A stretch of DNA of 64,000 nucleotides from Vicinamibacteria bacterium. Lineage in GTDB: Bacteria; Acidobacteriota; Vicinamibacteria; Marinacidobacterales; Marinacidobacteraceae. Location of the stretch: assembly GCA_964291235.2 (NCBI GenBank), contig OZ219816.1, positions 1-64,000 on the forward strand, in the 5' to 3' direction. Position numbers and translations under genes: made by a program. Positions 1 to 47,949 of this stretch are shown piece by piece; position 1 is the stretch's first letter, and every line of letters begins with the position of its first letter. Below the pieces are notes generated by a model. That model was not told where the DNA came from. It did not search any database and saw only the letters and a program-made list of their open reading frames with translations.

Positions 1-342
1 CCCCGCGGCGGTTGCCCGCTACGGGGTGACGGTCATGCATCTAGCCCGGCGGTTGCCCGACGGGTCAAGCGACCTACCCGGAAGCTCGGACAGGCTGCCC
101 TCGGGCGCTTCCCTATTTGGTCTTGCTCCATGCGGGGTTTACCGTGCCCTGAACATCGCTGTCCAGGCGGTGCGCTCTTACCGCACCTTTTCACCCTTGC
201 CGCTCCCCGAAGGGAGAGGCGGTCTGTTTTCTGTGGCACTTTCCTTCCGGTCACCCGGACTGGGGGTTACCCAGCGCACTGCCTTGCGGAGTTCGGACTT
301 TCCTCCCGCTCCCGAAGAAGCCGGCGACCGTCTGAACGACTC
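1..342 (-). ncRNA. rnpB: RNase P RNA (class A), 3' end cut off by the window edge
   Basis: Minus strand reads GAGTCGTTCAGACGGTCGCC...GAGGAAAGTCCGAACTCC...GGAAAGTGCCACAGAAAA...GGTGAAAAGGTGCGGTAAGAGCGCACC...GGTAAACCCCGCATGGAGCAAGACCAAATAG, which are the hallmark conserved RNase P segments. A TAGAAT -10 lies at 360-355. Confidence 0.96.
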
Positions 343-27868: not shown

Positions 27869-29837
27869 GCGCCGTACGGGTACCAGGTTCCGCGGACAGG
27901 CCGAACTCGAGATCGCCACGGAGGGGGTCCACGCGGACGAGCTGCGCCTCGAGGGCGTCACCGATCCGGAAACTGCGACCCGTCGCCGGGCAGCGGAGCG
28001 AGTAGTCCTGCCGGTGGAAACGGAAGCGTCCACCGGTGAGCAGCGCCATCGGCACCGTCCCCCGGGCTGGAATCCCGTCGAGCTCGATGGCGAGACCGAA
28101 ACGGCCCGTTTCGGAAACCCGGGCGGGGAAGACGTCTCCGAGCCGGCCGGCGAAGAGCCGCGCGATGCGCCGTTCGACGAGTTGCCGCTCCGCGGCCTCG
28201 GCGTTGCGCTCGGTGTCGGAACACGACGTGGCGAGCGCCGACAGCGTCTCGGGACTCGGGTCCCGGGGTGATCCGTTTTGCGCGGCGGCGAGGGCCCGAT
28301 GGGCCACCAGGTCCGGATATCGCCGGATCGGAGAGGTGAAGTGCGTGTAATCCGGCAGTGCGAGGGCAAAGTGGCCCTGCGCGCGAGGCGAATACACGGC
28401 CTTCTGCATCGCCCGGAGCAGCTTCCGCCGCAGAAAGGCCGCTTCGGGACGGCCTTCGATCCGCGCGAGCAGCCGGGCGCAGTGGACGGGACGGATCGGT
28501 CCCCCGGAGACGCGCAGCCGTTCGCCGAAGCCAGCCAACAGGTCCTCGAAGGAATCGATTCGCGTTTCGTCGGGGGCCTCGTGCACCCGGTGAAGAGCCG
28601 GCGAGCGGCTGCTGCGCAGCCGCTCGGCTACCGCCTGGTTGGCGAGCAGCATGAAATCCTCGACAAGCCGGTGGGCATCGTTTCTTTCCGAATAGCGAGC
28701 GTCCACCAGGTTTCCGTCGGCATCGGCGATCACCACCGGCTCGGGCAGGTCCAGGTCCACCGCTCCCCGGGCGGCGCGCGCCCGGGCGAGGAGCGCGGCG
28801 GCGCGCCCCATCGTCCGGACCGCCGCCCCGATGGGACCGGAGTCCGTACCCGCGAGGAGACGCGCTCCATCGTCATAGGACAGCCGGGCGGCGCTCCGGA
28901 CCACGCTGCGGAAGAAGCGGGCGCCCTGGAGCAGCCCGTCGGGGCCGATGCGCAGCATCGCCGATTGGACCAACCGGTCCACGTCCGGGAAGAGCGAGCA
29001 GATCCCGGACGACAGGGCCTCGGGAAGCATCGGCACGGCGCGCTCGGGGAAGTAGGCCGAAGTCCCCCGCCGGGCGGCCTCTTCGTCCACCGGGGTTCCC
29101 GGCGGGACGTAGTGGCTCACGTCGGCGATGTGGACGCCGATCTCGAAGCCGCCTCCGGCCAGTTCTCTCGCTTCGATGGCGTCATCGTGGTCCCGCGCGT
29201 CTTCGGGATCGATGGTCAGGATCAGACGGCCGCGGAAGTCCTCGCGCCCCTCGATCTCGCCGGCCGATACCCCCGCCGGCGCGGCCTCGGCCTGGGCGAG
29301 CGCCGCGGGCGGGAAGTCGTCCCGAATCCCGTACTTCGCGAGAACGGCAAGCAGTTCCGCCCGCGGGTCGTCCGCGGCGCCGAAGACGGATGCGATCTCT
29401 CCGATGACCGGCCGCCCCGGGGCGGGGAAACGCCGAACACGCACCTCCACGAGATCTCCAGGGCTGGCGCCGCCGGACGGGATGACGATCTCGCGCGCCC
29501 ACTGGCGGTCCCAGACCGTAACCGTTCGCTCGGGGGTGACCAGGCCCACGACGTTCCCGGTCCGCCGGCTGACCACGCGGACGACCGCACCCTCCAGCCG
29601 GCCGCGCCGGGTGCGGAAGGATTGCTCGACCTCCACCAGGTCTCCAGGCAGCGCCCCGCCCAGCCGGCTGCGGGTGACATGGATGTCCTCCGTGGCCCCG
29701 GAACCCTCCGGGATGACCCATCCGTCACCCTCCGAACGGCCCTGGAAACGCCCCGTCACCAAGCGGGATGGGGAGGGCGCCGAGGAGCGCTTGCGCCCGC
29801 GGTGACGGCCTCTTTCGCCCCGGCTGATCCTGCCCAC
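27774..29837 (-). CDS. rnr: Ribonuclease R / RNB family exoribonuclease
   Basis: TIDPEDARDHDDA, VHIADVSHYV, RGTSAYFP, HFALA...YTHFTSPIRRYPDL and a C-terminal S1 domain. Confidence 0.92.
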   Translation of the reverse strand: MGRISRGERGRHRGRKRSSAPSPSRLVTGRFQGRSEGDGWVIPEGSGATEDIHVTRSRLGGALPGDLVEVEQSFRTRRGRLEGAVVRVVSRRTGNVVGLVTPERTVTVWDRQWAREIVIPSGGASPGDLVEVRVRRFPAPGRPVIGEIASVFGAADDPRAELLAVLAKYGIRDDFPPAALAQAEAAPAGVSAGEIEGREDFRGRLILTIDPEDARDHDDAIEARELAGGGFEIGVHIADVSHYVPPGTPVDEEAARRGTSAYFPERAVPMLPEALSSGICSLFPDVDRLVQSAMLRIGPDGLLQGARFFRSVVRSAARLSYDDGARLLAGTDSGPIGAAVRTMGRAAALLARARAARGAVDLDLPEPVVIADADGNLVDARYSERNDAHRLVEDFMLLANQAVAERLRSSRSPALHRVHEAPDETRIDSFEDLLAGFGERLRVSGGPIRPVHCARLLARIEGRPEAAFLRRKLLRAMQKAVYSPRAQGHFALALPDYTHFTSPIRRYPDLVAHRALAAAQNGSPRDPSPETLSALATSCSDTERNAEAAERQLVERRIARLFAGRLGDVFPARVSETGRFGLAIELDGIPARGTVPMALLTGGRFRFHRQDYSLRCPATGRSFRIGDALEAQLVRVDPLRGDLEFGLSAEPGTRTAPTAGSRDRSRRTRRRRSRGAEVPGAAPARRP

Positions 29838-29864
29838 AGGCTGCTAGAATCGCACGCTCCGCGG

Positions 29865-29948
29865 GCCGAAGTGGCGGAACGGCAGACGCGCTGCGTTCAG
29901 GGCGCAGTACTCCTTGCGAGTGTCAGGGTTCAAATCCCTGCTTCGGCA
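29865..29948 (+). tRNA. tRNA-Leu(CAG), CCA not encoded
   Basis: Acceptor GCCGAAG/CTTCGGC, anticodon arm CTGCG-TTCAGGG-CGCAG, long variable arm and T-arm GGTTCAAATCC. Confidence 0.95.
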
Positions 29949-29954
29949 CCGCGC

Positions 29955-30930
29955 GCTGGTCGGACGTCGGACGGGGCCATCGAGCCAGTCGCGCAGGCAA
30001 CACCAGTCCTTCTTTGAGAACGGGCCCCGTCCGACGTCCGATCGGCACTTCGTGCCTCGAATCGGAACTCGCCGCATGGTCTCGTTAGAGACTGAACCAT
30101 AAGGCGCGATGAGCGGGTGCAGGCGAGTTCCGATTCGCGCTGTTCTTTTTGTGAAAGGGGGGCCAGCCCCCCTTTCACACTTTCCCCCCGGATGACGCAT
30201 CGGCAAGGGAACGCCGACCTCCAGGTCGGCACAGCCCCGCGAAGAGGGGCGGCGGCCCGGCCCCCCCACCGTCGGAACGGCTCCCCTCTCCGCGTGGCCC
30301 CCAACGCCCCGCCAGCCCATCAGTGCGCAACATTCGTGCGTTTTGCGATCACAGGCGAGTTCCCAGTCGCGCTGTCTTTCTTGTGAAAGGGGGGGCCAAC
30401 CCCCCTTTCACACTTTCCCCCCGGATGACGCATCGGCAAGGGAACGCCGACCTCCAGGTCGGCACAGCCCCGCGAAGCGGGGCGGCGGCCCGGACCCCCA
30501 GCGTCAGAACGGCTCCCCTCTCCGCGTGGCTCCCAACGCCACGCCCGAGCCCATCAGTCCGCAACATTCGCGCGTTGTGCGATCGCAGGCGAGTTCCCAT
30601 TCGCGCTGTCTTTTTGTGAAAGGGGGGCCAACCCCCCTTTCACACTTTCCCCCCGAATGACGCATCGGCAAGGGAACGCCGACCTCCAGGTCGGCACAGC
30701 CCCGCAAAAGCGGGGCGGCGGCCCGGACCCCCAGCGTCAGAACGGCTCCCCCCTCCGCGTGGCCACCAACGCCGCGCCCGAGCCCATCAGTCCGCAACAT
30801 TCGCGCGTTGTGCTGGTCGGACGTCGGACGGGGCCATCGAGCCAGTCGCGCAGGCAACACCAGTCCTTCTTAAAAACGGGCCCCGTCCGACGTCCGATCG
30901 GCACTTCGTGCCTCCGAATGGGAACTTGCT
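29955..30930. repeat. Composite palindromic repeat array (MITE/REP-like): X + 3xY + X
   Basis: Y units at 30121-30352, 30353-30586 and 30587-30813. X units at 29955-30073 and 30812-30930. Multiple internal hairpins. Confidence 0.92.
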
Positions 30931-30975
30931 CCGGGGCAGTTCTCCCGGTGAGGAGATTTGCCGGGACGCCTTCCG

Positions 30976-31488
30976 CTACGAAAAGGCATACACCAGGGTC
31001 GCTCCCGAGGCTCCATCCAGCAGCAGGACGATTCTTCCGGGACCATCACCGTAGGCCGCGCGGTAACGGTCACGGATGGGAGTCAGGTCGAACTCGTAGT
31101 CCTGGGTCAGCCAGGCTTCACAGGAATCCCCATTCGCGTCGTGCGCGACCGACACCCGCAACTGCACCGGGAATGACTCCAGGAAGACCTCGGAAGCAAC
31201 AAGCGTGACCTCATGACGCCTGCAACCTCCGGCGTAGGAGAGGTTCAGTGTCAGGGTGTCCCCGGCAACGGCGGCGTCGTTCAGGACGAAAGGGTCCTGG
31301 CCCCAGCGCTGAGGCGTTTCGGACACGACGACGGCGCCGGAACGGGGTCCCGCCGGGGGGACGTCATCAACCGAGATCCCGATGGGGGTGTCCAGCCCGC
31401 CCTGGCCGCAGGCCGCGAGGGCCGCGGCTCCCAGAATCAAAACCCGCAGACGCGAGGAACTTTCGGGGCCGGTCGTCCGCTGCGGCAA
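30976..31488 (-). CDS. Hypothetical lipoprotein
   Basis: LGAAALAAC lipobox and a compact domain SYAGGC..HE..LESFPVQ..HDANGDSCEA. Start uncertain. Confidence 0.7.
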   Translation of the reverse strand: MPQRTTGPESSSRLRVLILGAAALAACGQGGLDTPIGISVDDVPPAGPRSGAVVVSETPQRWGQDPFVLNDAAVAGDTLTLNLSYAGGCRRHEVTLVASEVFLESFPVQLRVSVAHDANGDSCEAWLTQDYEFDLTPIRDRYRAAYGDGPGRIVLLLDGASGATLVYAFS

Positions 31489-31510
31489 GACGGGTTGGCA
31501 GGAACCCAGG

Positions 31511-33091
31511 TCAGTTCTCCTGCTCTTCCTCCTCGCCGCGCACGGTCGGGTACTCGATGCCGAGTTGCTCAAGGTAGGTGTCGTAGGTCTCCGGGTCGTA
31601 GTAAAACGGCCGCATCGCTTCCCGGAACGAACCCATCCGGTCTTCGTTCAGGTGGATCGCGGGGGGATCGTCCGGACCGATCAGCGGCGTGTACTGGTGC
31701 TCGGCGGTCTGCTCGGCGAAGTACTCCTTCGCGGCCGGGACCAATTCCGGATCCAGGAACAGATCCATGAGCGTCATGGCGATCACGCGCGCTCCGGCCG
31801 CAGCTCCCTTGTGGGCGATCGGGGTCGCCATGGCGACCGCGTTGGCCCAGTGGTGACCCGGCCCACCCGGGATGTTGGACGGGAAACGCAGGGTCACCGT
31901 CGGAACGGCCCACGAGATGTCCCCGATATCGTCGGAGCCGCCGCCGAGCCGCGGCGGCTGCACCGGACCGCCCATCTCTCCAAGTTCGGTCGCCAGCCCC
32001 TGCTCTTCGACGCCGAGTTCGTGCTGCAGCCCCCTGGCGAGCGCCTGGTCGGCCTCGCTCCACTCGGGGAGGCCCACCCGCTCGATATTGGCCCACACCG
32101 CCTCGGCCACCGGCTTGCTGAAGTGGCGCGGGTAGGCGTGGCCCAGGATGCGCCATGACACCTCGGTCGAGGTCATCGCGGCGGCGGCCTGCGCCATCGT
32201 GTTTCCGAGGTCGTAGAGCTCCTTCATCCCGGACTGCTCAAGCTCCCGGAAGTAGTACCAGACCGAAGCCAACTGGGGCACCACGTTCGGCTGGTCCCCG
32301 CCGTTTGTGATGATGTAGTGCGAACGGTGCGGCAGGCGCAGGTGCTCGCGCTTGACGTTCCACGCCATGTTCATGATCTCGACCGCGTCGAGCGCGCTGC
32401 GGCCGCGCCACGGCGCCCCCGCCGAGTGCGCCGATTCGCCGGTGAAGGTGTATTCGACCGACACGAGGCCGTTGCCCCGGCCCTGTCCCCAGCTCACCGA
32501 GAACTGGTTCGAGACGTGGGTGAAGATGCAGATGTCCACATCCTCGAAGTAGCCGTCCCGAATGAACCACGCCTTCGTGCCCACGAGTTCCTCGGCGACC
32601 CCCGGCCATATCACGATGGTGCCGGGAAGGCCCTCGCGCTCCATCACTTCCTTGGCCGCCAGGGCTCCGGCGATGATCACCGCCTGCCCGGAGTTGTGGC
32701 CCTCGCCGTGCCCCGGCGCGCCTTCCACGAGGGGATCGTGGTATGCGACTCCCGGCTTCTGCGACGCCTTGGGAATCCCGTCGATGTCGCTGCCGAGCGC
32801 GATCACCGGCGAACCGGAGCCCCAGCGCGCCATCCAGGCGGTCGGGATGCCCGAGATCCCTTCCTCCACCTCGAATCCGTTCTCGCGCAGGATCTCGGTG
32901 AGGTAGCGGGAGGTCTCGAACTCCTGAAAGCCGAGCTCGCCAAAGCTGAAGATGGAGTCCACCATCACCTGGACCAGCTTGGCCCGCTCGGCCGCCCCCT
33001 GGTCGGCGACCGGACGGAGGGTCTCGAGGTCCTGCGCCGCCAGCGGCGCGGCAAGGAGCAGGGCAAGCAGGGATTGGAACAGTCGGCGCAT
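31511..33091 (-). CDS. Secreted M20 amidohydrolase (AbgB-like), paralog 1
   Basis: Signal peptide, ELGFQEFETS, GHGEGHN, GVAEE, HSAGAPWRGRSALDAVE and GGSDDIGD. Confidence 0.92.
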   Translation of the reverse strand: MRRLFQSLLALLLAAPLAAQDLETLRPVADQGAAERAKLVQVMVDSIFSFGELGFQEFETSRYLTEILRENGFEVEEGISGIPTAWMARWGSGSPVIALGSDIDGIPKASQKPGVAYHDPLVEGAPGHGEGHNSGQAVIIAGALAAKEVMEREGLPGTIVIWPGVAEELVGTKAWFIRDGYFEDVDICIFTHVSNQFSVSWGQGRGNGLVSVEYTFTGESAHSAGAPWRGRSALDAVEIMNMAWNVKREHLRLPHRSHYIITNGGDQPNVVPQLASVWYYFRELEQSGMKELYDLGNTMAQAAAAMTSTEVSWRILGHAYPRHFSKPVAEAVWANIERVGLPEWSEADQALARGLQHELGVEEQGLATELGEMGGPVQPPRLGGGSDDIGDISWAVPTVTLRFPSNIPGGPGHHWANAVAMATPIAHKGAAAGARVIAMTLMDLFLDPELVPAAKEYFAEQTAEHQYTPLIGPDDPPAIHLNEDRMGSFREAMRPFYYDPETYDTYLEQLGIEYPTVRGEEEEQEN

Positions 33092-33191
33092 CGCGGAAAA
33101 CCTCTCTCCGGCGGCGCCGCCCATCCCGGCCCGCCGGGCGGCGATTCTACCGGCGGGACCGCAGGATTCCGGGGCGAACCGCCTCCGCCGA

Positions 33192-34793
33192 TCAGTTCTC
33201 CCGGCTCTCTGACTCGCTGCGCACGGTCGGGTACTCGATGCCGAGCTGCTCGAGGTACGTGTCGTAGGTGTCCGGGTCGTAGTAGAACGGCCGCATCGCC
33301 TCCCGGAAGGAATTCATCCGTTCCTCGTTGAGGTGGATTGCCGGGGGATCGTCAGGACCGATCAGCGGCGTGTACTGGTGCTCGGCGGTCTGCTCCGCGA
33401 AGTACTCCTTGGCCGCCGGCACGAGTGCGGGATCGAGGAACAGGTCCATCAGCGTCATCGCGATGACCCGGGCGCCGGCAGTAGCCCCCTTGTGCGCGAT
33501 CGGGGTCGCCATCGCCACGCCGTTTGCCCAGTGATGACCCGGCCCACCCGGGATGTTCGAAGGAAACCCCAGCGTGACCGTGGGGACGGCCCAGGATATG
33601 TCACCGATGTCGTCCGAGCCGCCACCCAATCTCGGCTCACGGGCGGGGCCCCGGATCTCGCCGAGTTCGGTGGCGAGCCCCCGTTCCTCCACCCCGAGTT
33701 CCCGCTGGAGTCCCGTGGCCAGGGCCAAGTCGGCCTCGCTCCATTCGGGCAGGCCCACCCGCTCGATGTTGGCCCAGACCGCCTCCGCCACCGGCCTATT
33801 GAAGTGGCGCGGATAGGCGTGGCCCAGGATGCGCCAGGAGGCCTCGGTGGAGGTCATCGCGGCGGCGGACTCCGCCATGATGTTCCCGAGATCGAAGAGC
33901 TCCTTCATGTGGGGCTGGTCGAGTTCACGGAAGAAGTACCAAACGGACGCCAACTGCGGGACCACGTTCGGCTGGTCCCCGCCGTTCGTGATCACGTAGT
34001 GCGAGCGGTGCGGCAGCCGCAGGTGCTCGCGCTTGATGTTCCAGGCGGCGTTCATGATCTCCACCGCGTCGAGGGCGCTCCGGCCCCGCCAGGGCGCCCC
34101 CGCGGAGTGGGCGGATTCACCCTCGAACGTGTACTCCACGGAGACCAGCCCGTTCCCGCCTCCCTGCCCCCAGCCCACTCCGAACCGCGACGAAACATGG
34201 GTGAAGATGCAGATGTCCACGTCCTCGAAATAGCCGTCCCGGATGAACCAGGCCTTGGTGGCGAGGAGTTCCTCCGCCACCCCCGGCCAGATCGCGATGG
34301 TCCCGGGAATGCCCTCCCGCTCCATGATTTCCTTCGCGGCCAGCGCCCCCGCGACGATCACCGCCTGCCCCGAGTTGTGGCCTTCGCCATGGCCCGGCGC
34401 CCCCTCGACCAGGGGGTCGTGGTAGGCGACGCCCGGCTTCTGCGACGCTTTCGGGATCCCGTCAATGTCGCTGCCGAGCGCGATCACCGGCGAGCCGGAG
34501 CCCCAGCGCGCCATCCACGCGGTCGGGATCCCCGAGATCCCCTCCTCCACCTCGAATCCGTTCTCCCGCAGGATGTCGGTGATGTAGCGGGAGGTCTCGA
34601 ACTCCTGGAATCCGAGCTCCCCGAAGCTGAAAATGGAGTCCACCATCACCTGGACCAGCTTGGCGCGCTCGGCGGCCCCCTGATCGGCTACCGGACGGAG
34701 GGTATCGAGATCCTGCGCCGCGACCGGAGCGGCGAACAGGAACGCGAGGAGGACGGCCGGAAGGGACCGGAGGATCGGGGCTGTGTTGCGCAT
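33192..34793 (-). CDS. Secreted M20 amidohydrolase (AbgB-like), paralog 2
   Basis: Same motifs; mature sequence nearly identical to paralog 1. Confidence 0.92.
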   Translation of the reverse strand: MRNTAPILRSLPAVLLAFLFAAPVAAQDLDTLRPVADQGAAERAKLVQVMVDSIFSFGELGFQEFETSRYITDILRENGFEVEEGISGIPTAWMARWGSGSPVIALGSDIDGIPKASQKPGVAYHDPLVEGAPGHGEGHNSGQAVIVAGALAAKEIMEREGIPGTIAIWPGVAEELLATKAWFIRDGYFEDVDICIFTHVSSRFGVGWGQGGGNGLVSVEYTFEGESAHSAGAPWRGRSALDAVEIMNAAWNIKREHLRLPHRSHYVITNGGDQPNVVPQLASVWYFFRELDQPHMKELFDLGNIMAESAAAMTSTEASWRILGHAYPRHFNRPVAEAVWANIERVGLPEWSEADLALATGLQRELGVEERGLATELGEIRGPAREPRLGGGSDDIGDISWAVPTVTLGFPSNIPGGPGHHWANGVAMATPIAHKGATAGARVIAMTLMDLFLDPALVPAAKEYFAEQTAEHQYTPLIGPDDPPAIHLNEERMNSFREAMRPFYYDPDTYDTYLEQLGIEYPTVRSESESREN

Positions 34794-35108
34794 GGGGAAA
34801 CCTCTTTCCGTCGGGGACGCCCATTCCCGGCGCACCGAGCGCCCGATTCTACCGGCGGGATTGGTGTTGGGCCCGTCAGGTTTCGGCAACCAGCGGCGCC
34901 ATGATCCGCAGGCTGCGTTTTACGGACGGCGGCGCTCGGGGCGTCCACCTCGCGCGTTGTCGATGAGAACGCATTCACCCATCGGTAAGACCGTAATGAG
35001 TTGGAATCGGTCCATGGCCCGGCTGCGCTTGATCTCGATTGGCGGCCTGCCGTTTCGCGGCGCTCACAGGCTGCTAAGCTCCCGCCGCCAGGAGGCTTTG
35101 GCGCCGCT

Positions 35109-35193
<85 letters not shown>

Positions 35194-35247
35194 GCCCGCC
35201 CCTCCCTGACCAGGAAATCTGGTTTCGCGGACGCCTCCCATTCCATC

Positions 35248-36594
35248 GTGTCCGACCCCTCCGTTCGCCCACCCTTCCCGGAAAAGGACCGTATTCCGGA
35301 CCTGACCTTCGAACTGACCGAAGAAGGCCAATCGCGCCGCGCCATCGAAGTCACGATTCCGGCGCCGGTCTTCGAGGAAGCCGTCCAGAAAGAGCTGCGG
35401 CGTATCCGGCAAAAGGCCCAGCTGCGCGGCTTCCGCAAGGGCAAGGCGCCCAAGGAGCGGATCGAACTCCTCTACGGGGGCGAGGCCACCGAGGAAGCGA
35501 TGAGCCGCCTCCTCGGCCGGGCCACCCGGCAGAGCCTCCACGAACTCGATGTCCATCCGCTGGATGTTCCGAAGGCGACGCCCGAGGAAGCCACCCGCGG
35601 AAAACCGCTGGTGGCGCGCCTGCAATTCAGTGTCTGGCCGGACGTCGGGACGGTGGATTTCGCGGGGATCAAGGTCACCACCCAGGAACGTGCGGTAACC
35701 GAATCGGACATCGGCGAAACCCTGGAACATCTGCGGATGGAGCGGGCCCAACCCGGGCCGATCGAGGGGCGGGGCCTCCAGGACGGCGATCTGGTGATGG
35801 GCGAACTCACCGAATCCGACCTCCTCGAGACCGATCCGCCGACGGCGCCCCGGGTCACCAAGGAGGTGCCTTTGCGGGTGGGGAGCGAGACCTATCACCC
35901 GGCGCTCCACGAGGCGCTGCAGGGCGCCGCCGAAGGAGACACGGTGGTGGCCACCGCCAATTTCGGAAGCGAATCTCAAGATTCGGAACGAGCGGGACGA
36001 ACGATCCGGGCTGCCTTTACGGTCAATCAGGCGCGAACGCCGGTGCTTCCCGCTCTCGACGACGACTTCGCCCGCGACCTCGGGGCCGCTTCGCTGCTCG
36101 CGCTGCGGGGCGACATCCGGGACCGGCTGCGGGCGCGCGCCGATCAGAACGAACGGCGGGAGGTCGCGGAGCAATTGGTAGCGGCGCTACGCGAGAAGAA
36201 TCCGGTGGAACCTCCGGAGCCACTCGTCGAGCGGGATCTGGACAACCGCGTGCGCATGCTCGCGAACAGCATGGTTCAAGGCGGAATGCCCACCGAACAG
36301 GTGCGCGCCGAACTGGAAAAACACCTCGGCACCCTGCGCGCCGAGTGCGAAAAGACGGTCGCTGCCACGATCCTGGTAGACGCCCTGGCCGACCAGCAAG
36401 GCATCGAAACGACAGAGAAGGCTCTCGAGGAGCGGCTCGACCAGGAAGCCTCCGCCTCGGGGAAGTCTCCGGCCGCACTGCGGGCAGCCATGGAAAAGGA
36501 TGGACGGCTCGAACGGATGCGGACCCAGCTCCGGCGGGACGCGGCGATCGATTTCCTGAAGGAAAGCGCGGAACTCACGCCAGCCAAGGCATAG
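35248..36594 (+). CDS. tig: Trigger factor
   Basis: Ribosome-binding motif [18 protein letters not shown], and position between tRNA-Leu and clpP. Start uncertain (GTG 35248 or CTG 35302). Confidence 0.93.
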
Positions 36595-36685
36595 ACAGCC
36601 AGGGAACGCGGCCTCCGCGGCGCGGAGGGTGACGATTGCTGACCCGGCGACCTCGTATGCTGACCCGAACTTACGAACTCCAGCG

Positions 36686-37300
36686 ATGCCGCGAGGGAAG
36701 CACAACGTGATTCGAGACCAGATCCTGATACCGCACGTAATCGAACAGACCGGCCGGGGGGAGCGCGCCTACGACATCTATTCCCGGCTGCTCAAGGACA
36801 ACATCGTGTTTATCGGACAGCCCATCAGCGATGAGCTCGCAAACACCGTGGTGGCCCAACTGCTCTTCCTGGAGTCCGAAGATCCGGAGAAGGAAGTCTC
36901 CCTCTACATCAACTGCCCGGGCGGCTCCGTGACCGCCGGGCTTGCGATCTACGACACGCTGCAGTTCATCCGGCCGGACGTAACTACCTATTGCCTCGGT
37001 CAGGCATCCAGCATGGGAGCGATCCTGCTCGCCGCCGGGGCTCGGGGAAAGCGCTTCGCGCTCCCGAACGCCACCGTCATGATCCACCAGCCGCTCGGCG
37101 GCGCCCGGGGACAGGCGACGGACATCCAGATCCAGGCCAACGAGATCGTGCGGGTTCGCGCCCGGCTCACGGAAATCCTCGCCCACCACACGGGGCGTTC
37201 CACGGAAGAGATCGCACGCGATATCGAACGGGACCACTACATGACCGCCGAGGAAGCCAAGGCGTACGGCGTCGTGGATTCGGTCATCGAGCACCGCTAA
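36686..37300 (+). CDS. clpP: ATP-dependent Clp protease proteolytic subunit
   Basis: [35 protein letters not shown] and ERDHYM. Confidence 0.97.
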
Positions 37301-37411
37301 CGGGGCCGGGCGACCAGGGGCCCCGGGCACTTGATTCCTGACCCCAGAAAAGGCACACTCACATGTCCTTTTGGCGCCATTTTCGCGCCCGGATTCCCCT
37401 AGCAGACCGTC

Positions 37412-39826: not shown

Positions 39827-39837
39827 AGGAAACCTAC

Positions 39838-41247
39838 ATGTCCCTCATCACCGGAAAACACCTTCCTCGCCGGACCTTCCTCCGTGGAGCGGGCGCCGCA
39901 GTAGCGCTGCCCTATCTCGAGGCCATGTTGCCTGCGGGCCTTGGCGGCAGCAAGGCAGTCGCGGCGCCGACAGACGTGACGCGGCTCGTGTGCATCGAGG
40001 AAGTCCACGGGCTCCCCGGGTGCAACGAGTGGGGCGCCAGTCAGCACCTGTTCGCGCCAGCCACCGAGGGACGGGACTTCGAGCTGAAGCCGGAAAACGC
40101 GCTGAAGCCGCTCGAGCCCTACCAGGACTACCTGACCATCGTCAGCAACACCGACGTCCGGATGGCCGAAGCGTTCACCACCCCAGAGATCGGGGGAGAC
40201 CACTTCCGGTCGTCCGCGGTCTTCCTGACTCAGGCCCATCCGAAACAGACGCAGGGTTCCGATATCTGGTGCGGAACCTCGCTGGACCAGTTGTACGCGC
40301 AGCGGTTCGGCCAGGCCACCCCGATGCCGTCCATGCAGCTCTGCATCGAAAACCTGGATCAGGCCGGCGGCTGCACCTACAACTACTCCTGCGCTTACAC
40401 CGACTCCATCAGTTGGGCATCCCCGAACGAACCGCTCCCCATGATCCGGGACCCGCGGGTCGCCTTCGAGATGCTTTTCGGCGCCGGCAGCACTCCCGAG
40501 GAGCGCGCCGAACGCCGGGCCACGCGCCGCAGCATCCTGGACTGGATCCTCGGGGACGTCGCCGAAGTCCGTAACGAACTCGGCAACATCGACCGCCTCC
40601 GCATGGACCGCTACCTCGACCACGTTCGTGAAGTCGAGCGGCGTATCCAGATGATCGAAGGCCACAACGAGAGCGGCGGGACGCGGGAACTGCCGGACGC
40701 TCCTCCGGGTGTCCCCGACTCCTTCTCGGAGCACATGCAGCTCCTGTTCGATCTTCAGGTGCTCGCGCTGCAGACCGACATGACCCGGGTCATCTCGTTC
40801 AAGACCGGACGCGACGCCCAGAACCGCTCCTTCCCGGAGAGCGGCAGCACCTCACCCTTCCACCCAGCCTCGCACCACGGAAACAACGAAGAGCGGATCA
40901 TGGACTTCAACACGATCTGCCAGTACCGCATCGGCCAGCTCCCGTATTTCCTGGAGCAGCTCAAGAACACGGAAGAGGGAGGCGTTTCGCTCCTCGACAA
41001 GACGGCGATCATCTGGGGTTCGCCGATGGCCGACGCCAACATCCACAACCACCGGCGCGCGCCGCTGATCTTCCTGGGCCGGGCGAACGGGCACCTGACC
41101 GGCAACCTGCACGTGAAGGCGCCGGACGAGACGCCGATGGCGAACGCGATGCTCGCTCTGGTGCAGTCGCTCGGGCTCGAAATGGATTCCTTCGGTGACA
41201 GCAACGGCACCCTTCCGGTGTCGGAGCCGATGGTGGACACGGACTAG
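39838..41247 (+). CDS. DUF1552 (HxxSHH) protein with Tat signal
   Basis: RRTFLRGAGAAVALPYLEAM, SILD, YLDHVREVERRI and FHPASHH. Confidence 0.9.
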   Translation: MSLITGKHLPRRTFLRGAGAAVALPYLEAMLPAGLGGSKAVAAPTDVTRLVCIEEVHGLPGCNEWGASQHLFAPATEGRDFELKPENALKPLEPYQDYLTIVSNTDVRMAEAFTTPEIGGDHFRSSAVFLTQAHPKQTQGSDIWCGTSLDQLYAQRFGQATPMPSMQLCIENLDQAGGCTYNYSCAYTDSISWASPNEPLPMIRDPRVAFEMLFGAGSTPEERAERRATRRSILDWILGDVAEVRNELGNIDRLRMDRYLDHVREVERRIQMIEGHNESGGTRELPDAPPGVPDSFSEHMQLLFDLQVLALQTDMTRVISFKTGRDAQNRSFPESGSTSPFHPASHHGNNEERIMDFNTICQYRIGQLPYFLEQLKNTEEGGVSLLDKTAIIWGSPMADANIHNHRRAPLIFLGRANGHLTGNLHVKAPDETPMANAMLALVQSLGLEMDSFGDSNGTLPVSEPMVDTD

Positions 41248-41271
41248 CCGTCCGGGCCAAGGGGAAAACCA

Positions 41272-43143
41272 GTGCGCCTGACCGGAACTTCAAGACATCG
41301 AGCGGCCTGGGGCGCCGTCGTCGCGACGCTCCTCATCGCCGGGGTGGCGATCTCGTCACCGCCTGCGGCAGCCCCGGTGGCCGACGCCGCCCGGGTCGGT
41401 GACCTCGACGCGGTGCGGGAACTCCTCGCCCGGGGCGAGGATGCCAACGCCGCCCACGGGGACGGCATGTCGGCGCTTCATTGGGCCGCCGAGCAGGGTC
41501 ACGCGGAACTCGTTCGGACCCTGATCCAGGGCGGCGCCACGGTGGACGCGACCACCCGCATCGGAAGCTACACGCCGCTGCACGTGGCGAGCGCCGCCGG
41601 CCAGGCGGAGGTCGTGAGGCTGTTGCTGGAGGGCGGTTCCGATGCCGCCAGCACAACCAGCAACAGTGGAGCCACTCCGCTGCACCTCGCCGCGAATGCC
41701 GGGAGCGTTGACACGATCACCGCACTGATCGACCACGGCGCCGAGGTAGAGGCACGGGAGAGGACCTGGGGCCAAACGCCCCTGATTTTCGCCGCGGCCC
41801 GCAACCGCGTGGACGCGATCCGGGCCCTGCTGGAGCGGGGCGCGGACCCGAACGCCACTTCCAACGTCGTGGATCTGGTGACCGACTACGAACTCGCCGA
41901 GGCGGCGAAGAAGCGGCAGCGAGCCGTGCTGGAGGCTTTCGCCAGCGGTGAGGAAGAACCCAATTCAGCCGCGGTGCAGACGGCCGTGCTCGCGGCCCGC
42001 GAGTTCTATCTCGCCGGGGAGATTCCGCCGAAGGACGATGGCGAGGAAGATCCGTTCGCCGCGTTCCGGCGGCCGCAGCTCAAGTCCAAGGGGGGTCTGA
42101 CGGCCCTGCTCCACGCGTCGCGGCAGGGATTCCACGGCGCGGCTACCGCCCTCCTCGATGGAGATGCCGACATCAACCAGGCGTCTGCCGGCGACGCCAC
42201 CAGCCCGCTACTGATGGCCACCATCAACGGGCAGTTCGACATCGCGATGATGCTGCTTGAACGGGGCGCCGATCCCACGGTGGCGGCCAACGAGAACGGC
42301 GTGACGCCGCTGTGGGCGACCGTCAACGCCGAGTGGCAGCCTCGCACCCGGTTCCCGCAACCGCAGGAGCACGACCGGCAGGAGGCCACCTATCTGGACC
42401 TCATGCGGGCGCTTCTGGATGCGGGCGCCGATCCGAATGCCCGGATCACCAAGCACCCGTGGTACATGGTGTACAGCGGATGCGGCAACCGGAATTGCGG
42501 CCTCGCGGACACCGCCGGCTCGACTGCGTTCTGGCGGGCGGCCTACGCCACCGACGTGGCCGCGATGCAATTGCTGGCCGAGTATGGAGCGGATCCGAAC
42601 ATTCCAACCAAGGCGTCGGCGCCACGACGGCGGCGGGGTGGCACGACGACCGTGAACGCGGACGCGAAGGGTTCCCTCGCGGCCCTGCCGGCGGCTCCCG
42701 GCCTCTGGGTCCCAACCGACCTCACATCGATGGGACCGGATCCGTCGGGCCTCCCGCCGTACAAGGCTGGGGACCCCGGGGTGTATCCGATCCACGCCGC
42801 CTCCGGGGTGGGCTACGGTGAAGGCTTCGCCGGGAATGCCCATCGGCACGCGCCGGACGCCTGGCTCGCGGCTGTCCAGTACCTGGTGGAACTCGGGGCC
42901 GATGTGAACCAGCGCGATTTCAACGGCTACAACGCGCTCCATCACGCGGCCGCGCGCGGCGACGACGAAATGATCCTGTACCTGGTGGAGAAGGGATGCG
43001 ATGTCACCGCGGTGAGCCGGCGCGGCCAGACAACCGCCGACATGGCCAATGGCCCGGTCCAGCGGGTGTCGCCGATTCCCGAAACAGTGGCGCTGCTGGA
43101 GAGCCTGGGCTCAAAGAACAACCACAACTGCGTCTCGTGCTAG
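41272..43143 (+). CDS. Exported ankyrin-repeat protein
   Basis: Many TPLH/TALLH/TPL ankyrin repeats and a signal peptide, plus CGNRNC and terminal CVSC motifs. Confidence 0.92.
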   Translation: MRLTGTSRHRAAWGAVVATLLIAGVAISSPPAAAPVADAARVGDLDAVRELLARGEDANAAHGDGMSALHWAAEQGHAELVRTLIQGGATVDATTRIGSYTPLHVASAAGQAEVVRLLLEGGSDAASTTSNSGATPLHLAANAGSVDTITALIDHGAEVEARERTWGQTPLIFAAARNRVDAIRALLERGADPNATSNVVDLVTDYELAEAAKKRQRAVLEAFASGEEEPNSAAVQTAVLAAREFYLAGEIPPKDDGEEDPFAAFRRPQLKSKGGLTALLHASRQGFHGAATALLDGDADINQASAGDATSPLLMATINGQFDIAMMLLERGADPTVAANENGVTPLWATVNAEWQPRTRFPQPQEHDRQEATYLDLMRALLDAGADPNARITKHPWYMVYSGCGNRNCGLADTAGSTAFWRAAYATDVAAMQLLAEYGADPNIPTKASAPRRRRGGTTTVNADAKGSLAALPAAPGLWVPTDLTSMGPDPSGLPPYKAGDPGVYPIHAASGVGYGEGFAGNAHRHAPDAWLAAVQYLVELGADVNQRDFNGYNALHHAAARGDDEMILYLVEKGCDVTAVSRRGQTTADMANGPVQRVSPIPETVALLESLGSKNNHNCVSC

Positions 43144-43326
43144 CAGCCTGTGGCAAAACCCCCGCGGCGTTCGCCGGGCGATGCATCCCGGCTGAACCGC
43201 GCCTCTGCGAGGCGCTCATCGTTGCGTTTTGGTCGAAATACACCCGGTATTCCTCCCTCACGCGCCTTGTCAGCCGGGCGCCTCACCCGTCTCGGCGCTC
43301 ACGGGGGTTTCACCACAGGCCGCTAG
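43140..43326. mobile_element. MITE-like element with 25-bp terminal inverted repeats bounded by CTAG
   Basis: Left end CTAGCAGCCTGTGGCAAAACCCCCG versus reverse complement of the right end CTAGCGGCCTGTGGTGAAACCCCCG (22/25 identical). No transposase. Confidence 0.75.
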
Positions 43327-43328
43327 CC

Positions 43329-44084
43329 CTGTCCCGGCGCTGGACGGCGGCCGCGCTTCTGGTGGCGGGCACGCTTCCGGTGGCGGCCTCGGCGCAGGAG
43401 GCTCCGGAAGTAGCGCCCTGGATGGAAATGACCCTGGTCGGGGTAGATCCCGGCCAGGTGGACGAATTCCTGGCGGCGCAGCGGGAGTTGGCTTCGCTTG
43501 AAAAAGAGGCCGGCGTGCCCTGGCGCAGCGTCGCCCGGACCGCCGTATTCGGCGACACCTACCGGTTCGTGATCACGACCCCGCTTGTCCAGTTCGCGCG
43601 GCTCGATCGGCCCGGAAGCTCCGATCCGGCGCGCGCGAGCATCGAGAACCGTATCGAGCGCACCGTCACCAGCCACACCACCTTTGCGCTGCGGACGACC
43701 CCCGACCTCGACAACCCGCTCCCCGACGAGCGCGAACCGGCGCTCACCCTCGTCCAACGGGTCACCGTGGTGCCGGGACGGGAACAGGACTACATCAGGG
43801 TGATGGCCGAGGACGTGCTGCCACACTTCAAGGAAGCGAACATGCACCACGCTTCGGGCGCCTTGACGCTTGGCGGCGACAGCGGTTACGTGCACTTCTT
43901 TCACGTCGGGAACTTCGCGGCACTCGACCAGGGATCGCCCCTCGCTCGCGCCCTTGGCGCGGAAGGCGCCCTCGAGATCACTTCGAAACTTGCGGGAGTT
44001 CTCTCGCGTTCGGAGCAGTGGGTCGTCCGTTATCTTCCCGACATCAGCTTCCGGCCCGAGGTGGAAGCCGAAGGCGAGAACTGA
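43329..44084 (+). CDS. Hypothetical exported protein with two similar halves (NIPSNAP-like dimeric alpha/beta barrel?)
   Basis: Signal peptide RRWTAAALLVAGTLPVAASA. Repeated halves V(D/V)PG(Q/R)..(E/D)(F/Y) and F(A)xLD. Start codon unclear. Confidence 0.65.
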   Translation: MSRRWTAAALLVAGTLPVAASAQEAPEVAPWMEMTLVGVDPGQVDEFLAAQRELASLEKEAGVPWRSVARTAVFGDTYRFVITTPLVQFARLDRPGSSDPARASIENRIERTVTSHTTFALRTTPDLDNPLPDEREPALTLVQRVTVVPGREQDYIRVMAEDVLPHFKEANMHHASGALTLGGDSGYVHFFHVGNFAALDQGSPLARALGAEGALEITSKLAGVLSRSEQWVVRYLPDISFRPEVEAEGEN

Positions 44085-44238
44085 CGTCCCCGGGGCAAAG
44101 TTCGCCGTCCCGCCCCGGTGAACGGAATACGGGCCGGTACGTCGGGGAGTTTCGCGATCCTGCCGGGTCGCGATTCCGGCCTGGAGGCCGGCGCTCCGAG
44201 GCTCCCGCTACGCGGGACCCGGCTACAATGGCTGGCGC

Positions 44239-45513
44239 GTGCCTGGGAAGGGAAAGAGCCGAAGCGGCGGCCCCGCCGACAGCCTGAGTTGCTCGTTCTG
44301 CAACAAGCAACAGGGCTCGGTCGGCAAACTGATCGCCGGACCTGACCGAATCTTTATCTGCGACGAATGCGTTGCAATTTGCAACGACATCATCGCGGAC
44401 AAGGGCAAGGCTGCCACGCCGGGCCCGGACCGCAAGCGCCACCTGACGCCAAGCGAAATCAGGAAGCGCCTGGACGAATACGTGGTCGGCCAGGAAGAGG
44501 CGAAGAAGAAGCTTGCGGTCGCGGTGTACAACCACTACAAGCGGATTCGGCTCACCCGCAACACGGCCCGGGAGCCGGATTCCGTCGAACTAAGCAAGAG
44601 CAACGTGCTGCTGCTCGGCGAAACCGGCACCGGAAAGACCCTGCTCGCCCAGACGCTCGCGCGCATCCTGGACGTTCCCTTCACGATCGTGGACGCCACC
44701 ACTCTGACGGAGGCGGGATATGTCGGGGAAGATGTGGAGAACATCATCCTGAAGCTGCTCCAGGCCGCGGACGGAGACATCGCCCGGGCTCAGGAAGGCA
44801 TCATCTATGTGGACGAGATCGACAAGGTCTGCCGCAAGGACGAAAACCCCTCCATCACTCGCGACGTCTCGGGAGAAGGGGTCCAGCAGGCCCTCCTGAA
44901 GATCGTCGAAGGCACGCTCGCCAGCGTCCCCCCCCAGGGAGGGCGCAAACACCCGCACCAGGAGTTCCACCAGGTGGACACGACGAACATCCTGTTCATC
45001 TGCGGCGGCGCCTTCGTGGGTCTTGAATCGCTCATCGAACGGCGCATCGGGACCAAGGCGCTCGGTTTCGCCGCTGACGTACCGGAAAACGCCAAAGCCC
45101 GGCGGGAGGCCACCCTCGACCAGCAGCAACCGTCCGACCTGATCCGCTACGGGCTGATCCCCGAATTCGTGGGTCGGCTGCCGGTGGTCGCAACGCTCCA
45201 CAGCCTCGGCACGCAGGAACTGATCCGGATCATGACCGAACCGAAGAACGCCATCGTGAAGCAGTACCAGGCGCTGCTTCGCGACGAGGGCGTCGAGCTG
45301 ACGTTCACCGCGGAAGCTCTCGAAGCGGTCGCCGTCCGGGCTTCCGAGCGCGACCTTGGAGCTCGAGGCCTTCGCATGATCATCGAAAACCTCATGCTGG
45401 ATCTCATGTACGACCTCCCTTCCCGAAAGCAGGTGCGCGAGGTCGTGATCACCAGGGAATTCGTCACCGGGCAGGCCGACCCGGTGACCGTTCTTTCCCA
45501 AAAGGCCGGCTGA
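44239..45513 (+). CDS. clpX: ATP-dependent Clp protease ATP-binding subunit
   Basis: C4 zinc finger [34 protein letters not shown] and LGF loop. Confidence 0.97.
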
Positions 45514-45678
45514 CCCGGTGTCGTAGCCGGTGGATGCAATGACGTGCGCACCGAGCTCGGTAAGTCGCCCGGCTGACGAATGGCACCATTCGGCCGGGAT
45601 GGATCACCGGCTGAACGCCGCGTAACTTCATTCACCGGCTGCCAGGTCCTTCAGGACCCTTCTCTCTACTTCCCACCC

Positions 45679-46308
45679 ATGCCAAAAACCCCCCGCGACC
45701 GCGCCGTCTTCATCACGAGTGCCGTCACCCGCGCGGGCTTTCCGCCGCCCGCGCTTCCCGAGGTGGCGTTCGTGGGGAGGTCGAACGTCGGCAAGTCGAG
45801 TCTCCTGAATCGGCTCGTTGGTCAGCGGAGGCTGGCCCACGTTTCCCGGACTCCCGGACGCACCCGCATGGTCAACTTCTTTGAGGTTGTCGGTAGCCAC
45901 CGCCTCGTGGATCTTCCCGGGTACGGCTACGCGCGGGCGCCCGAGGCGCTCCGGGCCGGCTGGGAGGATCTGGTGCTGTCCTACCTGACTGCACGCCAGA
46001 GCCTCGTGCTGAATCTGCTCCTGGTCGATGCGCGGCGCGATCCGCTGGAGAGCGACCTCAGGGCACTCGAACTGCTTGGCTCCAGCGAGCGGCCGGTTGC
46101 CGTCGTGGCGACCAAAATGGACAAACTGAAGAGCGCGCAGGCCGCATCGACACTTCGTCAGCTTTCCGAGGCATTCGGCAGCGACGGCCGTCTCCCGGTC
46201 ATTCCGTGTTCCAATGTTCCGAGCAACAAGCGATCGCGAGATCCTGGCCGGGAAGGAATCGCCAGGATCCGGCAGTTGATCGCCGAACGGGTGGAGGCGT
46301 GGCGCTGA
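45679..46308 (+). CDS. engB: Ribosome biogenesis GTPase YihA/EngB
   Basis: GRSNVGKSS, SRTPGRT, DLPGYG and TKMDK. Confidence 0.95.
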   Translation: MPKTPRDRAVFITSAVTRAGFPPPALPEVAFVGRSNVGKSSLLNRLVGQRRLAHVSRTPGRTRMVNFFEVVGSHRLVDLPGYGYARAPEALRAGWEDLVLSYLTARQSLVLNLLLVDARRDPLESDLRALELLGSSERPVAVVATKMDKLKSAQAASTLRQLSEAFGSDGRLPVIPCSNVPSNKRSRDPGREGIARIRQLIAERVEAWR

Positions 46309-47660
46309 GTTCCGGCGCCGGGACAATCCGGCGTCGTTCCCGCAAGGTCTTCCGGGCCGGTCCCCGGGTGCTCGAGAAGGCCGCTCCGCCATCCGGTCCC
46401 ACGCTCTATACGGCGGAACTCGCTCGGATGAGCCCGGAGGACCTGCAGCGCGTGGCGGGCGATCTCGGGATCGATACCCCGGACGCGCTGACGCGGCAGG
46501 ACCTGCTCTACCGGGTGCTCGGCGCTCACACGACCCAGGGGGGACGGGTGGTCGCCCAGGGGACTCTGCACCGCCTGGTGGAAGGGTTCGGATTCCTGCG
46601 CTCGCCCATCAACTCCTATCTACCGGGTCCCAACGACGTCTATGTCTCACCCACCCAGATCCGGCGTTTCAACCTGCGGAACGGCGACATGCTGCTCGGG
46701 GATGTCCGCAGACCGCGACGTGGGGAGCGGTACTTCGGACTGCGGGACCTCGAACTGGTAAACGGGGAACCCGCGGTGGAGAATCCGGACCGGCCGGAAT
46801 TCGAGTCGCTCACCCCGCTCCATCCGGATCGGATCATCCGGCTCGAGAATGACTCCGGGGACCTGGCCGCCCGGGTGGTGGACCTCGTGGCTCCCATTGG
46901 AGCCGGACAGCGCGGACTCATCGTGGCGCCGCCGCGGGCCGGCAAGACCGTTCTCCTGCAGTCCATCGCCAATGGGATTCAGCGCAACCACCCGGACATC
47001 GAGTTGCTCGTGCTCCTCGTGGACGAGCGGCCGGAGGAAGTCTCCGACATGGCCAAGAACGTCCGGGGCGAAATCCTGAGCTCGACCTTCGACGAACGGG
47101 GTATCCGCCACATCCAGGTGGCCGAAGCGGCGCTCGACCGCGCCAAACGCCGGGTCGAGCTCGGCAAGGATGTGGTCATCCTGCTGGACTCCCTGACCCG
47201 ATTGGCGCGGGCTTACAACCACACGAAGGCCTCCGCGCAGGGCCGGCTGCTCTCCGGAGGCATGGACGCGACGGCCATTCAGTATCCGAAGAAGTTCTTC
47301 GGCGCCGCCCGCAACATCGAGGATGGCGGCTCGCTCACCATCCTGGCCACCGCGCTGGTGGATACCGGAAGCCGTCTCGACGATCTCGTATTCGAAGAGT
47401 TCAAAGGCACCGGGAACATGGAAATCCATCTCGACCAGCGGCTTCTCGAGCAGCGCCTCTTCCCCGCCATCGACCTGCACCAAAGCGGCACCCGGCGGGA
47501 GGAACTGCTGCTGTCTCCCGGGGAATTGCAGCGGATGGTGGTGCTCCGGCGTGTGCTCGCGTCCCTGGACGCTGTAGAAGCGATGGCGCTCGTCATCGAA
47601 AAAATGGGACAGACAGCGTCGAATGCCGCTTTCCTGGAGGCGATGACGGACTCGGAGTGA
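46299..47660 (+). CDS. rho: Transcription termination factor Rho
   Basis: [48 protein letters not shown] and [11 protein letters not shown]. Confidence 0.97.
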
Positions 47661-47669
47661 TCGCAGCCG

Positions 47670-47696
47670 CGGGGTTTCACCACAGGCTGCTAGTAT
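47670..47696 (+). promoter_or_regulatory. Solo MITE end fused to an extended -10 (TGC-TAGTAT) of rpmE
   Basis: CGGGGTTTCACCACAGGCTGCTAG nearly matches the right end of the 43140-43326 element. TAGTAT lies 13 nt before the ATG. Confidence 0.55.
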
Positions 47697-47709
47697 TCGC
47701 GCCCTTCAC

Positions 47710-47949
47710 ATGCGCGCCGGAATCCATCCCGAGTACGAGGACATCACGGTCACCTGTGCCTGTGGCACCAGTTTCGTGACCCGTTCCACTCGGGGCAGCG
47801 ATCTGCGGCTTGAGATCTGTTCCGCCTGCCATCCGTTCTTTACCGGGAAGCACCGGATCGTGGATTCGACCGGGCGCGTTGAACGGTTCCGCCAGAAGTA
47901 CGGCGAGGTTCGTTCGCGGCGGGCAGCCCAGGCGGGCGCCGCGCAGTAG
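47710..47949 (+). CDS. rpmE: 50S ribosomal protein L31 (Cys-containing, Zn-binding type)
   Basis: [13 protein letters not shown] and [10 protein letters not shown]. Confidence 0.97.

Follow-up and report, generated by a model that had tools for sequence, protein, structure and literature searches.

Why does one 12-nucleotide sequence stand before two tRNA-Leu genes and the ribosomal protein gene rpmE, and also form the terminus of a small repeat in the same stretch of DNA? The question arises in a Vicinamibacteria bacterium, at the start of contig C2, whose initial 64,000 nucleotides were analysed (this whole stretch is the window). The source genome, G000, comprises 3.45 Mb with 68% G+C and is 90% complete. 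The original prediction described the 12-mer, CACAGGCTGCTA, as the end of a transposable element of the miniature inverted-repeat kind (a MITE) fused to the -10 boxes of translation genes, and offered two explanations. Either the element targets the CTAG or TA of such boxes and leaves domesticated ends as promoters, or a native promoter of stable RNA genes resembles the element end. The labels "domesticated" and "promoter" denote putative functions of these sites throughout. Taken as a whole, the evidence is probably best explained by a MITE that inserts into rare YTAR tetramers (Y, pyrimidine; R, purine), among them those of -10 boxes, where it rebuilds the extended box TGnTAnnnT and leaves scars behind.

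The 12-mer is the junction of a MITE with its target

Every reported occurrence of the 12-mer in the window was recovered: exact copies on the plus strand at 29835, 35065 and 47681, an exact copy on the minus strand at 43141, and a one-mismatch copy on the plus strand at 43314. When window sites were scored against 100 shuffles, these five matches compared with 0.07 expected, and none of the shuffles attained five. The claim that the TGC-TA end joins an extended -10 box was also borne out, as all three promoter copies run into a TAnnnT hexamer, and TGnTAnnnT lies at a plausible distance upstream in each case. By motif scan and orthologue comparison, the 12-mer and box TGCTAGAAT (29842-29850) of the tRNA-Leu(CAG) promoter span 29835..29850 (+), and the box ends 14 nt before the tRNA (anticodon CAG; ARAGORN, 29865..29950, +). 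The second copy, located in the same way at 35065..35080 (+) with box TGCTAAGCT (35072-35080), stands 28 nt before tRNA-Leu(TAG) (anticodon TAG; ARAGORN, 35109..35193, +), which is followed by the trigger factor gene (Pfam, 35248-36594). The rpmE box, TGCTAGTAT (47688..47696, +; motif and orthologue comparison), lies 13 nt before the ATG at 47710 of rpmE (Ribosomal_L31; Pfam, 47710-47949).

Across the genome, most copies of the 12-mer are MITE ends. The source genome holds 54 exact copies of CACAGGCTGCTA, and 44 of these are MITE ends, sharing at least 11 of 14 upstream bases with reference ends; of 5000 random genomic 14-mers, a single one reaches 11. Counts of the 12-mer range from 3 to 215 in the 15 genomes of the genus that were searched. 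The unpublished genome G033 supports none of the claims made here. An nhmmer search of the source genome, with a profile made from 20 of the 185-bp copies, gave 80 matches, of which 51 cover the element over its full length. The element reads CAGCCTGTGG...CCACAGGCTG, with the terminal inverted repeat CAGCCTGTGG(T/C)(G/A)AAACCCCCG... at both ends, and the two ends can be told apart (End A and End B). With a modal length of 185 bp, the element is too small to encode a transposase. Lengths of 203, 221 or 239 bp in some (unaligned) copies suggest internal repeats or insertions.

The window contains one complete element, at 43141..43325 (-; nhmmer E = 3e-57, model positions 1-185), which reads CAGCC...GGCTG between two CTAG tetramers. 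It folds as one long hairpin, with -63.2 kcal/mol (z -7.1) on the minus strand and -51.3 (z -4.5) on the plus strand. Its arms differ by transitions, and the minus strand folds much better than the plus strand. The element sits on the TAG stop codon of an ankyrin-repeat gene (Pfam, 41272-43143, +), whose product has 623 residues, mostly ankyrin repeats. A partial copy covering model positions 123-183 lies at 45582..45642 (+; E = 3.7e-5).

The tetramers flanking 46 oriented copies are nearly all YTAR: nine copies have CTAG on both sides, six have TTAA on both sides, and most others have flanks one transition apart. At the rpmE site, the empty sequence ...CTGCTAGACT... corresponds to a filled sequence ...CTGCTAG-element-CTAGACT..., and target duplication is likewise seen at three other loci. 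We considered an extended target preference, with CTG before and CAG after YTAR, and rejected it, since inspection of the flanks of full copies, without statistics, revealed no enrichment. By its small size, terminal inverted repeats, many dispersed copies and target-site duplication, the element is a bacterial MITE. The 12-mer is thus a junction and not a unit: it consists of the last nine bases of the element (...CACAGGCTG) and the CTA of a YTAR target. No published work was found under the name "Marinacidobacterium", and no literature search was aimed at the MITE family.

Target sites are rare and are shared with native promoters

YTAR tetramers are strongly depleted in the source genome. 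CTAG occurs 834 times against 10163 expected from base composition, TTAA 128 times against 2218, CTAA 478 times against 4777, and TTAG 427 times against 4719, which makes these tetramers about 10- to 17-fold rarer than predicted. Restriction avoidance, repair bias or pressure from the element itself may lie behind this scarcity. The 1768 sites outside MITEs are distributed over intergenic DNA (943), stop codons (389) and coding sequence (436). Three quarters of them (75%) are therefore intergenic or on stop codons, in a genome of which 87% is coding by our own gene calls. MITE termini are spread much like the available sites, with fewer in coding DNA: of the 128 termini, 90 are flanked by intergenic and 10 by coding DNA, and stop codons hold the other 28.

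From sequence, the organism's own promoters appear to have no -35 element and to consist of an extended -10 box, cTGCTAnnnT. Outside MITEs there are 100 TGCTAnnnT sites, 83 of them intergenic, and for 60 a gene or tRNA in the same direction begins within the next 120 nt. The control motif TGCTAnnnG occurs 224 times, with 70 intergenic and 16 within that distance, and a second control, GTCTAnnnT, occurs 42 times, with 17 and 3, respectively. Many tRNA genes in the source genome carry a TGCTAnnnT box. The 60 native boxes have nothing upstream in common except a frequent C at -1, and a promoter scan of 29700-47800 returned no canonical -35/-10 pair. With an element end of ...CTG and a target of CTAR, an insertion rebuilds the host's own cTGCTAR. 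In the source genome, TGCTAnnnT arises at seven MITE junctions that lie no more than 120 nt from a start in the same direction, and at several of these the distance to the start codon is just 6 nt.

Many TGCTAnnnT boxes end only 6-10 nt before the start codon called by our own rough gene caller, a spacing that would give leaderless or nearly leaderless mRNAs. At rpmE, no obvious Shine-Dalgarno sequence was seen in the 13 nt between box and start.

The same promoters are empty, filled or scarred in related genomes

Comparison of orthologous promoters, which had been suggested as a check, separates native boxes from MITE-filled sites at four loci: rpmE, tRNA-Asp, an amidohydrolase gene and a small open reading frame (ORF). 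At all four, relatives have either an empty cTGCTAR or a MITE in the same CTAR. This upholds, for these loci, the first of the two original explanations, in which the element inserts at CTAG or TA and leaves its ends at promoters.

At rpmE, 13 genomes of the genus have both anchors. Seven of these have short MITE-free spacers ending in TGCTAATAT, ACTGCTAGTAT or TGCTAGACT, and the other six have a MITE or a composite exactly at the same CTAG. G009 has a full MITE precisely within the CTAG of TAGACT, bordered by CTAG on either side, and partial or composite MITEs occupy this point in G010, G004, G008, G013 and G001. The end that faces the box is End A in G009 and End B in G010; both orientations are thus represented, which requires at least two separate events or an inversion. 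In the source genome, about 27 bp of MITE end (47665..47692, +; identified by its match to MITE copies and by the relatives' sites) is kept in place of native DNA upstream of the rpmE box, immediately after the stop codon of rho (Pfam, 46428-47660). The predicted resemblance of this copy to the MITE end is confirmed by a 25-bp exact match to other MITE copies, and 16 further nucleotides adjoin the 12-mer with one gap. By this comparison the rpmE copy is a solo MITE end. The box TGCTAGTAT would accordingly be composite: its TG comes from the element end, its CTAG is the target or its duplication, and its TAT is native.

At tRNA-Asp, 11 genomes have an empty site, which in most reads CTGCTAGAAT and stands 20 nt before the tRNA, and G004, G013, G001 and the source genome are occupied. 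In the source genome, a full MITE outside the window (C2:1709306-1709592) abuts the -10 box of the sole tRNA-Asp gene found. Because the next upstream gene is divergent, read-through from a neighbour is unlikely, which leaves the junction box as the best candidate for the promoter. This tRNA gene behind a full MITE is the best, if indirect, sign that a junction box may function.

The amidohydrolase gene (C1:361532) has an empty promoter in seven genomes (aCTGCTAGGGTT) and full MITEs, in both orientations, in four. Among the latter is G002, which carries a full MITE where the source genome retains just cCCACAGGCTG before CTAG. At the small ORF (87 codons, C1:743976), ten genomes are empty, G008 has a full MITE, three have composites and the source genome has a scar. 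Between rplK and rplA, an old MITE-like insert, by now degenerate, lies at the rplK stop codon, and the 12-mer forms its right end. Thus, at four of the five loci that have the 12-mer and no further MITE sequence, the motif is assigned to MITE ends or scars: firmly at the amidohydrolase gene, the small ORF and rplA, and tentatively at tRNA-Leu(TAG). The supposed link to translation genes does not hold as a specific one, as scars also lie upstream of the amidohydrolase gene and the small ORF; we regard the link as incidental.

The two tRNA-Leu promoters

Neither tRNA-Leu copy has MITE similarity beyond the 12-mer: their upstream scores are equalled or beaten by 16-82% of 1000 random genomic 60-mers. 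At tRNA-Leu(TAG), CTGCTAAGCT and the leader are kept in all 13 genus genomes that have the locus, and ccacaCTGCTAAGCT is found in five. In G008, a MITE end lies exactly at the same CTAA. The source genome reads ctCACAGGCTGCTAAGCT, and its upstream region cannot be aligned to the other genomes. We tried this region as MITE End B with a 14-bp deletion and rejected it; against 20 natural copies it scored 21 and 16, values that 16% and 70% of 1000 random 60-mers equalled or beat. The CACAGG before this native box is about equally likely to be a MITE scar or a product of chance.

Fifteen genus genomes keep the entire flank upstream of tRNA-Leu(CAG), and so do two metagenome contigs, which were the only orthologues from a metagenome scan; no MITE stands at the box in any of them. 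The form CCACGGACTG(C/T)TAGAAT is present in seven genus genomes and both contigs. The ancestral 13-mer is single-copy in six relatives (G002, G003, G006, G009, G011 and G012), which marks the sequence as native and not a repeat. Other genomes have variants: AGG in the source genome and G014, CGG in G007, GGG in G015 and AGA in G004. Our base case is that the copy at this tRNA is an ancestral promoter (CCACGGACTGYTAGAAT) that resembled the MITE end by chance, until two substitutions made it identical in the source genome. From base composition, we estimate that about 1.7 of the 60 native boxes would match five of the seven further positions. For this gene, it is the second original explanation, a native stable-RNA promoter resembling the element, that the conserved flank favours. 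A serious rival is that a transient MITE overwrote the box, through a deletion between two CCAC repeats.

Transposases and related elements

No long element with MITE ends was found in the source genome; pairs of ends 0.6-4 kb apart enclose what look like ordinary genes, or adjacent MITEs. Relatives with 140-215 copies of the 12-mer have many transposase domains, and DDE_3 genes were found in four of the five relatives searched. In two relatives, CTAG flanks an IS630-family element on both sides (Pfam DDE_3; about 1146 bp; L161:925-2070 in G013, L162:1372-2517 in G001). Its terminal repeat, TA-GTGTGGTGTCC..., has just TGTGGTG (7 nt) in common with the MITE. An outward-facing MITE end abuts either side of the IS630-family element in G013, and the left junction was read directly in G001. 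In three further copies in G001, a MITE-end match lies where the end of the insertion sequence (IS) would be expected. Either the IS630-family element prefers MITE-MITE junctions, or MITEs land beside it.

One weak Y1_Tnp match was found in the source genome (33.2 bits, C1:16451-16924). There are no MITE copies in the 3.2-kb locus of this ORF and no nhmmer match at 5-30 kb of C1. A link to RAYT transposases is therefore not supported, given an ORF with no nearby repeat and the duplication of CTAG at filled sites.

Proposed mechanism and alternatives

The mechanism that we favour builds on direct observations: the identity of the motif, its target, the depletion and location of that target, the native promoter type, and the filled, empty and scarred states of the same promoters. 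In a genome of 68% G+C, YTAR is rare, and the sites that remain are mostly stop codons (TAG/TAA) and the host's own -10 boxes. A MITE landing in the CTAR of a box would shift all upstream DNA 185 bp away. Its terminal ...CTG would take the place of the native cTG, which would restore TGnTAnnnT and presumably leave the promoter active; insertions could thus persist before essential genes. The long palindrome may later undergo internal deletions that leave solo ends of 10-27 bp, the scars. At tRNA-Leu(CAG), an old native promoter that shared 10 of 12 bases with the element end would have acquired the two remaining bases, whether by point mutation or because a transient MITE overwrote them.

Several points weigh against this account or limit it. 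That junction boxes fire, and that the element's TG keeps them active, is what we infer from their form. No DDE_3, DDE_Tnp_1 or DDE_Tnp_4 match was found by Pfam in the 90% complete source genome, that is, no IS630, IS4/IS5 or Harbinger-type transposase domain. Flanking tetramers are identical in only 15 of 46 copies, and the flanks fit a duplication of TA (2 bp) and of YTAR (4 bp) alike, so that the C of TGC could be assigned to the element or to the target. Genes were called with a home-made caller based on codon usage, which makes counts that rest on gene starts approximate. At tRNA-Leu(TAG), the tie to the MITE consists of CACAGG only, given how many random 60-mers (16-70%) score as well. 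Finally, termini do not favour -10 boxes: 18 of 100 lie beside TAnnnT, compared with 517 of 2650 non-coding YTAR orientations (19.5%; Fisher p = 0.80). A special targeting of -10 boxes, which the original prediction included, is therefore rejected, as there is no preference past site availability and 28 of the 128 termini lie on stop codons. The MITE aims at YTAR, and because -10 boxes hold many YTAR sites, its ends meet promoters; "fusion to promoters" is a by-product of target choice and not an aim.

It is possible, though well short of probable, that all three promoter copies, that of tRNA-Leu(CAG) included, are MITE scars. A MITE would have entered CTAG or CTAA, and a deletion between the native CCAC(A) and the element's CCAC(A) would have overwritten GGACTG with AGGCTG. 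Such a deletion yields exactly the source-genome sequences at both tRNA-Leu promoters. Long palindromes are generally prone to deletion, and the MITE is one. Scars of 10-13 nt are documented at the amidohydrolase and small-ORF promoters, and G008 has its MITE at the tRNA-Leu(TAG) box. Furthermore, each variant at tRNA-Leu(CAG) in the source genome, G014, G007, G015 and G004 brings the box closer to MITE-end variants known from these genomes. In G002, the closest relative at this locus (93% identity), only 4 of 75 upstream bases differ from the source genome, and two of the four create the identity. The direction of these changes fits overwriting by a MITE better than drift and weakens the case for mere resemblance. 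Against such overwriting stands the lack of any MITE at this box in the 15 genus genomes and the two metagenome contigs. In addition, changes of one or two bases at unconstrained positions suffice for the variants, and a chance match at five of the seven further positions is expected among the roughly 60 native promoters, by the base-composition estimate given above.

A stronger claim, which we consider unlikely, is that the MITE end is an adapted, portable promoter part: its ...CTG would have been selected to rebuild the host's extended -10, giving safe landing at essential genes and new promoters wherever the flank reads nnnT. Element end and target together do match the host consensus cTGCTAR, and seven junctions in the source genome form the box near a co-directional start. 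The same boxes (rpmE, tRNA-Asp, the amidohydrolase gene and the small ORF) have been hit recurrently, in both orientations and in different species; however, these loci were picked for their scars in the source genome, which inflates the apparent recurrence. Many cut-and-paste transposons have CAG...CTG ends, so the TG may serve transposition instead; TAnnnT is not enriched beside termini; and about one-fifth of the termini lie on stop codons, where a promoter is useless. A precedent exists in the strong outward promoters of Correia elements, according to a review (PMC10969869). An account that joins these two ideas is doubtful, if slightly less so than selection of the end taken singly. It holds that the end is shaped to rebuild the extended -10, that the boxes of essential genes (rpmE, tRNA-Asp and tRNA-Leu) are repeated safe landing sites, that their spacers are overwritten by insertion and CCAC-microhomology deletion, and that the tRNA promoter tracks the MITE variants of each species. 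Very improbable, by comparison, is that CACAGGCTGCTA is a native site at which a host factor regulates translation-related genes, with the MITE imitating or deriving from such a promoter. All six copies without further MITE sequence do point at a nearby downstream gene or tRNA, two of them at tRNA-Leu and one at rplA. Yet orthologous promoters in relatives lack CACAGG at rpmE, tRNA-Asp, tRNA-Leu(TAG), the amidohydrolase gene and the small ORF, and these orthologue comparisons largely refute a regulatory site. The 60 native boxes also have no conserved upstream bases except the C at -1, the copy before rplA forms the end of an inserted element, and two of the downstream genes are not translation genes.

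Other features of the window and genome

A bacterial class A RNase P RNA lies at 20-332 (-) of the window (283.6 bits). A 46-bp stretch just 3' of tRNA-Leu(CAG), at 29955-30000, is repeated exactly 857 bp further on, at 30812-30857. Between these repeats are two near-identical terminator-like hairpins, GCGAGTTCC(G/C)ATTCGC with a T-rich tail, at 30123-30138 and 30589-30604. The repeats and hairpins look like a local repeat family unrelated to the MITE.

The region with tRNA-Thr/Tyr/Gly/Thr, tRNA-Trp and rplK-rplA is present twice in the source genome, in opposite orientation (C1:1331729-1335724 and C2:501749-505753). The two copies are 99% identical over the 501 bp compared, and the C1 copy lies within 13 kb of a contig end. 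This could be a real duplication or an assembly overlap.

The nearest relative of the source genome shifts by locus. At tRNA-Leu(CAG), the 93% identity to G002 compares with 77-78% to G008, G001 and G013. At tRNA-Asp, identity is 94% to G004, G008 and G013 and about 80% to others, and at the small ORF and rplK-rplA the source genome is closest to the G008 group. The shifts point to recombination within the genus or to a mixed assembly.

Significance and comparison with known systems

One rule, insertion into a rare TA-containing tetramer, repeatedly puts a mobile element inside the core promoters of essential genes in a high-G+C genome. Such insertions would survive because the last bases of the element restore the TG of the extended -10. 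Sister species show, at the same promoter, a series from native box to full MITE, solo end and 10-nt scar. If junction boxes fire, these uncultured Acidobacteria would offer a natural series for the study of transposon-driven promoter turnover. Furthermore, the identical 12-mer before several genes is not, in this case, evidence of a shared regulator.

The target of the MITE resembles that of IS630/Tc1-mariner elements. IS630 inserts in CTAG and duplicates TA; the MITE target is likewise centred on TA in CTAG-like tetramers, and its ends read CAG... and ...CTG. The likeness stops at the terminal sequence, of which the IS end shares only TGTGGTG, and the source genome has no DDE_3 gene. REPINs, which are moved by RAYT, offer a second parallel as dense intergenic hairpin repeats. 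Single-strand Y1 transposition is not known to make a target duplication, whereas here CTAG stands on both sides of the insert at filled sites and once at empty sites, which indicates that the target was duplicated.

In the hybrid promoters of insertion sequences, an outward -35 in the IS end is joined to a resident -10. As in those, a mobile-element end and resident DNA would form one promoter here; unlike in those, a -35 plays no part, and the MITE end gives the extended -10 its TG.

A further parallel is with the Correia (CREE/NEMIS) elements of Neisseria. According to a review (PMC10969869) and a further source (PMC3184786), these are small multi-copy MITEs with inverted repeats, mostly intergenic and often just upstream of genes, whose ends have outward sigma-70-type promoter activity for adjoining genes. 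The same sources give outward promoters as established for Correia MITEs and as reported for several other MITE families (PMC10969869, PMC3184786). The present MITE is likewise small, multi-copy, bounded by inverted repeats and mostly intergenic. A MITE with an outward promoter is thus of a kind already known; what would be new is an extended -10 rebuilt from MITE end, target and native flank. The putative promoter described here differs from that of Correia elements in being a -35-less extended -10, with two or three terminal bases from the element and the remainder from target tetramer and native flank, and in being known from sequence alone. It also differs in that the same promoter form was present before insertion, such that the insertion would restore a promoter and not create one, and in that the same boxes have been hit repeatedly in sister species.

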